From the IMG/VR virus record IMGVR_UViG_2558860274_000001, positions 1-42,135 of that record: a stretch of 42,135 bases of DNA. One strand, written 5' to 3'. The notes below the pieces were generated by a model. That model saw nothing but the letters and a program-made list of their open reading frames with translations. It was not told the DNA's origin and made no database searches. Of the stretch, positions 30,597 to 38,256 are shown one piece after another. The stretch comes from a virus. Lineage: Duplodnaviria; Heunggongvirae; Uroviricota; Caudoviricetes. Both the position numbers and the translations under genes were made by a program. Position 1 is the stretch's first letter, and the number at the start of each line of letters is the position of its first letter.

Positions 30597-30752
30597 TTAC
30601 TCCTCAGGTTCGTAAGCTGTGAAGACAGCGACCTCCGTCTGGCCGGTTCGGATTCGTACCTCGCAGAGGTCTTTCCTCGTTACCAGTGCCGTCACTATGA
30701 CGGTTAAACAGATGACGATCAGGGCGATTAACATCGCCTTTTGCTGCTTCAT
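30597..30752 (-). CDS. hokD: Hok-family type I toxin (HokD/RelF-like), 51 aa
   Basis: Manual translation MKQQKAMLIALIVICLTVIVTALVTRKDLCEVRIRTGQTEVAVFTAYEPEE; below the ORF-track size cutoff. Confidence 0.85.
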   Translation of the reverse strand: MKQQKAMLIALIVICLTVIVTALVTRKDLCEVRIRTGQTEVAVFTAYEPEE

Positions 30753-31041
30753 AGCCTGCTTCTCCTTGACCTTTTGGTCCGTAAGAGGCTAATCTCTATG
30801 TGTCGCATAGATATGGCCTCAGATTAATGTTAAGCGTCTTGCAGGACGCGTAATGTTAACTGGGGCTTTTCTCTATCTGCCGTTGGTGTTCATGCCTGAG
30901 GCAGATAGCCTCAAGCACCCGCAGCAATTCTACTTAACTCTCCTTTTCCCGCAAATCGTTTTTATCCCCAGCGGCAAATCGAATACACCACCAGCGCCAC
31001 CGCCATTGCAATTCCCATCGTTGCGAATGCTTCAGGCCAGG

Positions 31042-36703: not shown

Positions 36704-37111
36704 ATGGAATTTAAAGATTTACCAAAAGAAATCCAGACAATTGCTGCAACGACTCTCGGTGATAGTCTGGTGAAAATTGACCCGGCATACACCAAAAAAG
36801 AAACCATCGATAATATGGTTCGTAATGTGCGCAATGCTTTTTCTGGGCTATATGGTTCTGATAATCAAAAGCAGGAAAGCGATGTTAATAAACGGGTAAT
36901 TTCTGTTTGCGTGAATGGCCATGTTCTTTCATCAATCAAAACAGAAACGGCGACAGTCTTCGATTGCCTTTGCATTGTACAGAGCCTTGTTGATGCCCTG
37001 TTTCGTTCAGTGAATTTAGAAAATGATGCAAATCTGCGAGGGCGCACAATAGCACATCCATATGCACATACTTTAGGCTCTGTGGATATCAAAGATCCCA
37101 CAAATCTTTAA
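36704..37111 (+). CDS. Hypothetical 135-aa protein in the dicB operon
   Basis: ORF with RBS GAGG upstream; 3' end overlaps a convergent ORF. Confidence 0.5.
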   Translation: MEFKDLPKEIQTIAATTLGDSLVKIDPAYTKKETIDNMVRNVRNAFSGLYGSDNQKQESDVNKRVISVCVNGHVLSSIKTETATVFDCLCIVQSLVDALFRSVNLENDANLRGRTIAHPYAHTLGSVDIKDPTNL

Positions 37112-37322: not shown

Positions 37323-37656
37323 TCACCCTCCTGAGGGTTGGTAATTAAGGAGTTCTCCACGGGTGAAATGGAGTGCGTGCGCCGGACACGGGTGAACATC
37401 CGGCACTGACAGTTTACTGAAAGGATATTTCTCTGAAAAGTCAGAGCATAACGCGAAAGCGCACGGCGAGGTTGCTGGTTCATAGATAGCCTGTCGTTAA
37501 ATTTTCGTCGACCGTGCGCTTCCGGTTGTGGCACTCCGCGAAATGGCGCGGCGGTAAGTATGGCGGGGTTATTCCTTCCCCCGTTGAGGACACCGGGTTG
37601 TCAGGTTGACCATACGCTTAAGTGACAACCCCGCTGCAACGCCCTCTGTTATCAAT

Positions 37657-37711
37657 TTTCTGTGACGTTTGGCGGCATCTGTTTGCCCATGAACTGATGT
37701 CCGCCCTTTTT
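37657..37711 (+). ncRNA. dicF: DicF-like small RNA (ftsZ-targeting sRNA homolog)
   Basis: TTTCTGTGACGTTTGGCGG...CCGCCCTTTTT resembles K-12 DicF (UUUCUGGUGACGUUUGGCGG...) with 3' terminator hairpin; located upstream of dicB. Confidence 0.7.
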
Positions 37712-37880: not shown

Positions 37881-38069
37881 ATGGAAACGTTATTACCAAA
37901 CGTTAATACGTCTGAAGGTTGTTTTGAAATTGGTGTCACTATCAGCAATCAGATATTTACTGAAGATGCCATTAATAAAAGAAAACACGAACAGGAACTG
38001 CTAAATAAAATATGCATTGTTTCGATGCTGGCCCGTTTACGTCTGATGCAAACAGGATGCAGGCAATGA
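37881..38069 (+). CDS. dicB: DicB cell-division inhibitor
   Basis: 62 aa METLLPNVNTSEGCFEIGVTISNQIFTEDAINKRKHEQELLNKICIVSMLARLRLMQTGCRQ from internal ATG. Confidence 0.85.
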   Translation: METLLPNVNTSEGCFEIGVTISNQIFTEDAINKRKHEQELLNKICIVSMLARLRLMQTGCRQ

Positions 38070-38256
38070 ATACGGCATTTGTACTCGTTCTGACTGTTTT
38101 TTTGTTTCTGGTGAACCGATTGATCTTGTTATTGACATACATGACTCAATGGAAGAATGCATGACTGCCGCGGCAGAGCAAAAAATTCCCGGGAACTGTT
38201 ATCCTGTCGACAAAATTATTCGCATGAACAATAACGAAATCCCGGCAGGCCTTTAA
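38066..38256 (+). pseudogene. ydfD: ydfD with apparent frameshift in a poly-T tract
   Basis: ATG overlaps dicB stop; MNTAFVLVLTVFL then stop after 32 codons; the alternative frame downstream of the T-run (~38096..38104) encodes VSGEP...ECMTAAAEQKIPGNCYPVDK...IPAGL, matching YdfD as I recall it. Confidence 0.5.

Follow-up and report, generated by a model that had tools for sequence, protein, structure and literature searches.

A one-base deletion in a poly-T tract interrupts a ydfD-family gene of a lambdoid prophage

Immediately downstream of the cell-division inhibitor gene dicB, the prophage analyzed here carries a start codon that opens a frame of 32 codons. Is this short frame a gene in its own right, a switchable or recoded form of a longer one, a sequencing error, or a broken copy of the prophage gene ydfD? 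The window, that is, the whole stretch of 42,135 nucleotides under analysis (IMG/VR record IMGVR_UViG_2558860274_000001), is almost wholly one lambdoid prophage. Within it, dicB (37881..38069, + strand) is intact, its 62-aa product matches the Pfam DicB profile over the full length (132.5 bits), and the closest genomes annotate it as WP_000449200.1. The ydfD ATG at 38066 lies inside the dicB stop codon, forming an ATGA overlap at 38066-38069. Translation from this ATG gives MNTAFVLVLTVFLFLVNRLILLLTYMTQWKNA, with a TGA at 38162-38164 ending the truncated frame (38066..38164, + strand), just as a first sequence-only reading of this DNA had described.

Identity and native form of the gene

The native frame is lost at a run of seven Ts with a G on either flank (38097..38103, + strand), which sharpens the position of about 38096..38104 given earlier for a poly-T tract; a display line of 59 characters, once feared to upset the numbering, had no bearing on the coordinates. 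The frames of 38066 and 38068 join exactly at this T7 run. Past it, the frame of 38068 (the -1 frame) reads through VSGEPIDLVIDIHDSMEECMTAAAEQKIPGNCYPVDKIIRMNNNEIPAGL to a stop that ends at 38256, supplying the C-terminal 50 residues of a YdfD/DUF1482 protein. The gene as a whole spans 38066..38256 (+ strand), 191 nt versus 192 nt in intact alleles and one nucleotide short of whole codons; the translations, the alignment to T8 and K-12 alleles, and flags from the PGAP annotation pipeline on three genomes with the same sequence all point to a 1-bp deletion here. When one T was added, the frame encoded a 63-aa protein whose exact sequence is present on 123 public contigs (E. coli and E. albertii) under the name DUF1482 family. 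For this restored product, the match to Pfam DUF1482 (PF07358) spans all 57 profile positions at 80.9 bits (cut-off 25), and the identity to K-12 YdfD is 73%. The proposal that the alternative frame holds the rest of YdfD was therefore correct.

The truncated 32-aa product retains 12 native residues, followed by 20 out-of-frame and very hydrophobic ones, and its best 19-residue Kyte-Doolittle window averages 2.71. A weak match of this peptide to PspB reached 17.9 bits (cut-off 25.6) and was set aside as a non-specific resemblance between hydrophobic helices. Two in-frame ATGs, corresponding to native Met29 (38149) and Met33 (38161), lie in the orphaned C-terminal coding part, read from the sequence in the native frame (38149..38256, + strand). 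The Met33 codon shares bases with the stop of the truncated frame in an ATGA (38161-38164) and has GGAAG five bases upstream, and the C-terminal 35 aa still match DUF1482 at 44 bits. Exact look-ups of the 32-aa, 50-aa, and 35-aa frames in a collection of 15 billion proteins returned no match; these null results are uninformative on allele frequency because ORFs so short are rarely reported by gene callers.

By position, the gene is a typical member of its family: it lies directly 3' of dicB in the dicBF operon, its start overlaps the dicB stop, and the gene order is that of K-12-like and other genomes. By length, it is not, since an uninterrupted ORF of ~63-67 aa is broken here after codon 12 and stopped after 32 codons. 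As written, the locus is best read as a pseudogene member of the YdfD/DUF1482 family, relative to the 192-nt intact alleles. Alignment resolved three states of the tract. T7, found in the window and its lineage (six copies in all), breaks the frame; T8, found in the nearest intact alleles (E. coli DCE7, PK8241, and others), is in frame and encodes Phe-Phe; and TTTTTCTT, found in K-12-like and most other alleles, is in frame and encodes Phe-Leu. Through the stop codon, the ydfD of the window is the DCE7 allele save for the missing T. The alignment to K-12 ydfD that had been suggested as a check thus returned an in-frame tract in K-12, and a window one T short of its closest T8 alleles.

Among the best 80 of at least 592 IMG/VR ydfD loci, 78 encode an unbroken protein of 63-67 aa, and the two broken ones both belong to the T7 lineage; 29 apparent ORF failures among these 80 loci were checked by eye and proved to be intact genes with variant N-termini, save for the same two. 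Since 78 of the 80 best loci are uninterrupted, the long form is the native one. One IMG/VR locus (2724679239_000009) has the same N-terminal haplotype with TTTTGTTT (Thr-Val-Leu-Phe) in place of T8 at codons 10-13, a natural interruption of the homopolymer.

The closest known system is YdfD of the K-12 Qin prophage, a 63-aa lysis protein that binds IspG. Like the window gene, it lies immediately 3' of dicB with an ATGA overlap; the two proteins are of equal length once the T is restored, and a hydrophobic N-terminus and the conserved EQKIPGNCYPVDK core are common to both. The K-12 tract is, however, interrupted, whereas the frame in the window is broken after codon 12 by the T8-to-T7 deletion. 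Moreover, Qin is a remnant, whereas the prophage in the window looks complete and is integrated at yccA.

We therefore propose, with a probability of roughly 0.85, that the T7 sequence is a real and heritable allele in which a toxin gene of the ydfD family (DUF1482), part of the early dicB operon, has lost its function; the lambdoid prophage that carries it integrates beside yccA. In the likely sequence of events, a C-to-T substitution would have turned the common TTTTTCTT (Phe-Leu) into TTTTTTTT (Phe-Phe), an 8-nt homopolymer, after which replication slippage would have dropped one T. Translation that begins at 38066, coupled to that of dicB by the ATGA, would run out of the native frame past residue 12 and terminate at 38162-38164. 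A 32-aa hydrophobic peptide would then be made in place of the 63-aa protein, whereas the remainder of the prophage, including dicB, DicF, and the exonuclease, is intact. This is ordinary prophage gene decay, and the gene is already annotated as a frameshifted pseudogene in three public E. coli genomes. The import beyond annotation is small: the locus should be labeled a ydfD/DUF1482 pseudogene (frameshift, T8 to T7) and not two small hypothetical ORFs. It is nonetheless a tidy case in which a point substitution makes a homopolymer that then sheds a base.

Consequences for YdfD function and residual expression

What would the deletion do to the activity of YdfD? Cell lysis and IspG binding are known for the K-12 protein alone. 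In a study of it, expression of YdfD causes cell lysis, which is prevented by DicB or SulA (PMC8835842). YdfD binds IspG via its N-terminal 28 residues; cells survive expression of variants that lack 1-5 residues at either end, and a variant without the N-terminal 28 residues (the C-terminal 35 only) did not pull down IspG (PMC8835842). YdfD thus needs both ends to lyse cells, and its C-terminal 35 residues alone do not bind IspG. With only 12 native residues left at the N-terminus, the T7 allele has most likely lost YdfD toxicity, either wholly or in large part. The same data suggest that a C-terminal fragment made by reinitiation would be largely inactive. Aside from the missing T, the gene shows no further decay, which fits a recent lesion and equally fits a retained partial function.

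"Null" may nevertheless be too strong a word, given that T7 is at the threshold for slippage. In E. coli, seven Ts are the shortest run at which slippage by RNA polymerase is detectable; on a T7 tract, an out-of-frame GFP was rescued by insertion at ~5%, and RNA sequencing detected 0.75% insertions (PMC6260861). The allele could in that case be leaky, with polymerase slippage at the U7 run (+1 U), or a rare -1 slip of the ribosome on U_UUU_UUG, restoring a few percent of full-length protein and so lowering the dose of YdfD rather than abolishing it. We consider this unlikely as a description of the allele. The tract length does sit at the reported polymerase threshold (PMC6260861), the zero-frame heptamer T_TTT_TTG is formally a slippery X_XXY_YYZ sequence, and in each of the six T7 copies the 3' frame remains open and carries no more than one substitution. 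However, the open 3' frame may just reflect a young lesion, there is no sign that a leak is selected, and the arrangement is limited to one small lineage. Furthermore, no RNA structure stands out 3' of the tract (z = -0.48), and U_UUG is a weak -1 motif in E. coli that reached 1.8- to 3.6-fold over background even with a strong stimulator (PMC4066793). Unprogrammed insertion of one U at the U7 run might yield ~1-5% full-length YdfD, a product that would carry the junction peptide TVFFVSGEPIDL.

A more elaborate version of the leaky reading is that the T7 allele encodes a tuned-down toxin, with ~1-5% full-length YdfD made via U7 slippage, the new 32-aa hydrophobic peptide as the main product, and possibly a 31- or 35-aa C-terminal fragment. 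The fragment would arise by reinitiation at the ATGA at 38161-38164 (31 aa) or at the ATG at 38149 (35 aa). If so, a lytic protein would have become a low-dose toxin accompanied by small peptides with effects of their own; in our judgment this is more doubtful still than a simple leak.

Nothing supports programmed recoding, whether by transcriptional slippage or by -1 ribosomal frameshifting. A split frame is not conserved among homologs, given that 78 of the best 80 IMG/VR loci are single intact ORFs. The search for a frameshift-stimulating RNA structure 3' of the tract found a fold no better than that of shuffled sequences, and the locus does not combine an efficient slippery site with a stimulator. 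Frameshifts in A/T runs that are rescued by slippage include Shigella mxiE (T9), Thermus dnaX (A9), IS elements (A9), and the human apoB lesion (eight As). The window gene resembles these in that its defect is a single base in a T run of the sense strand, which one additional U in the mRNA could correct (PMC1088944, PMC6260861). The rescued cases, however, use runs of 8-9 or more, whereas the run in ydfD is 7, and programmed cases keep their arrangement across homologs, whereas the T7 arrangement is confined to its one lineage.

Origin and spread of the T7 allele

Outside the window, T7 was found in two IMG/VR contigs and in three complete RefSeq genomes of E. coli (CAU16175, PS1Thumoskin9, and EPSSH018), in each of which PGAP (NCBI) gives ydfD as "DUF1482 family protein, frameshifted". 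None of these five other assemblies is identical to the window across the shared region. The N-terminal haplotype of the window is carried by 11 of 5,426 complete E. coli genomes, and a comparison of tract length across strains, as had been recommended, gave 3 T7 and 8 T8 among these carriers. Single matches came from the GTDB species representatives (E. albertii NBRC 107761) and from the JGI metagenomes (one metagenome contig), and both are T8.

We aligned 2.2 kb from 18 copies (6 T7, 12 T8) and found T7 tied to one haplotype (6/6 versus 0/12, Fisher p = 5e-5). The T7 lineage has a second private indel in the leader upstream of DicF, where all six copies read C5 at 37578-37582 and all twelve T8 copies read C4, and a downstream SNP block is common to the six. 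The lesion is inherited and has a single origin. The group has diversified since: two members carry an extra ydfD substitution, the only one in the gene among the six copies, one has a different block in the DicF region, and the flanks are mosaic. In the three complete genomes, the T7 tract, the haplotype, the yccA site, and the 191-nt span are all as in the window; these genomes differ from it by at most 1-2 substitutions near the gene and by mosaic flanking modules, and EPSSH018 has also lost the immunity region to IS elements. In EPSSH018 (positions 900-4100 of locus L102), the repressor/cro immunity region has gone via ISEc20 and ISKpn26, and ydfA-ydfC, dicB, and the broken ydfD are kept.

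These data bear directly on the suggestion of a sequencing or assembly error, according to which the true tract would be T8 and the gene intact. Homopolymers of 7-8 nt are classic sites of single-base deletion in long-read assemblies, and T7 was read here from assembled sequences. Yet T7 recurs in five other assemblies, its six copies share one haplotype with a second private indel, and the twelve aligned relatives, which have other haplotypes, are all T8. The window also contains 16 homopolymers of at least 7 nt, at least eight of them inside long intact ORFs, so that there is no general tendency of this assembly to shorten homopolymers. Judged from these sequences, an artefact is very unlikely.

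Lastly, the idea of a slippage-prone switch, in which the tract would often alternate between an off state (T7) and an on state (T8) and so yield mixed populations, is scarcely credible: the frameshift does lie inside a homopolymer, both lengths are natural, and T8 is in frame, but just these two lengths were seen (no T5, T6, or T9-T11, in a T5-to-T11 pattern scan of IMG/VR or in complete genomes), T7 is monophyletic with 0/6 carriers reverted despite later divergence and recombination, and the homopolymer is not conserved, most alleles having TTTTTCTT or other interrupted forms. Neither recurrent multi-length polymorphism with reversions nor a conserved repeat tract, the two marks of a contingency locus, was therefore found. 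In mismatch-repair-proficient E. coli, a 7-8 nt A/T run mutates far slower than known contingency tracts.

A reverse pattern of loss in the dicB/ydfD pair was seen in a sibling prophage of E. coli Z1323CEC0009 (positions 1522-1709 of locus L004), where the T8 ydfD is intact and dicB is frameshifted (CCC to CC at dicB nucleotide 151); this break could be an assembly error.

The prophage around ydfD

The sequence-only reading had offered, as one possibility, that a domesticated prophage had one of its lytic functions inactivated. Of the three explanations in that reading, inactivation is the supported one; the terms "lytic function" and "domesticated" go too far. The prophage encodes a full-length integrase, 826-aa exonuclease, DicA-like repressor, Q-like antiterminator, endolysin, Rz spanin, large terminase, portal, and major head protein. 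In the three complete T7 genomes and in T8 relatives, its integration site is beside yccA rather than in the Qin position. By its gene content it looks complete, with its own lysis genes kept, and it shows no visible sign of domestication. The dicB-ydfD-exonuclease module is also present in isolated viable phages such as mEp460, Tritos, and HannyBb, and ydfD is therefore an accessory early-operon gene of active phages. It is not part of the phage lysis cassette, and what was lost is an accessory toxin, with the dicB/DicF module and the lysis cassette remaining intact. The T7 and T8 alleles, one base apart, constitute a natural strain pair for the role of YdfD in a whole, inducible prophage.

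Upstream of dicB, the operon contains a divergent allele of a DicF-like sRNA (37657..37706, + strand), which scored 41.1 bits against Rfam RF00039 (E = 2.6e-7), short of the gathering score (48). In PS1Thumoskin9, whose prophage is a close relative, a different sequence block occupies the DicF position. Between ydfC and DicF lies an extra 135-aa ORF (36704-37111, + strand; phrog_1363, function unknown) that is absent from the K-12-like operon, and in related genomes a 77-aa antisense ORF is annotated over its end. The next operon gene after ydfD encodes the intact 826-aa exonuclease (38349..40829, + strand), with a C-terminal Rv2179c-like 3'-5' exoribonuclease domain (233.5 bits); its homolog in a K-12-like genome is truncated by IS2.

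We also noted two features elsewhere in the prophage. A hok/sok type I toxin-antitoxin system lies at 30750-30920 (- strand; Rfam sok, 102 bits), where a related genome has hokD annotated. Two phage-borne tRNA genes, Gly(tcc) and Thr(tgt) (25228-25381, - strand), lie a short way downstream of the gene for the Q-like antiterminator (25678-26499).
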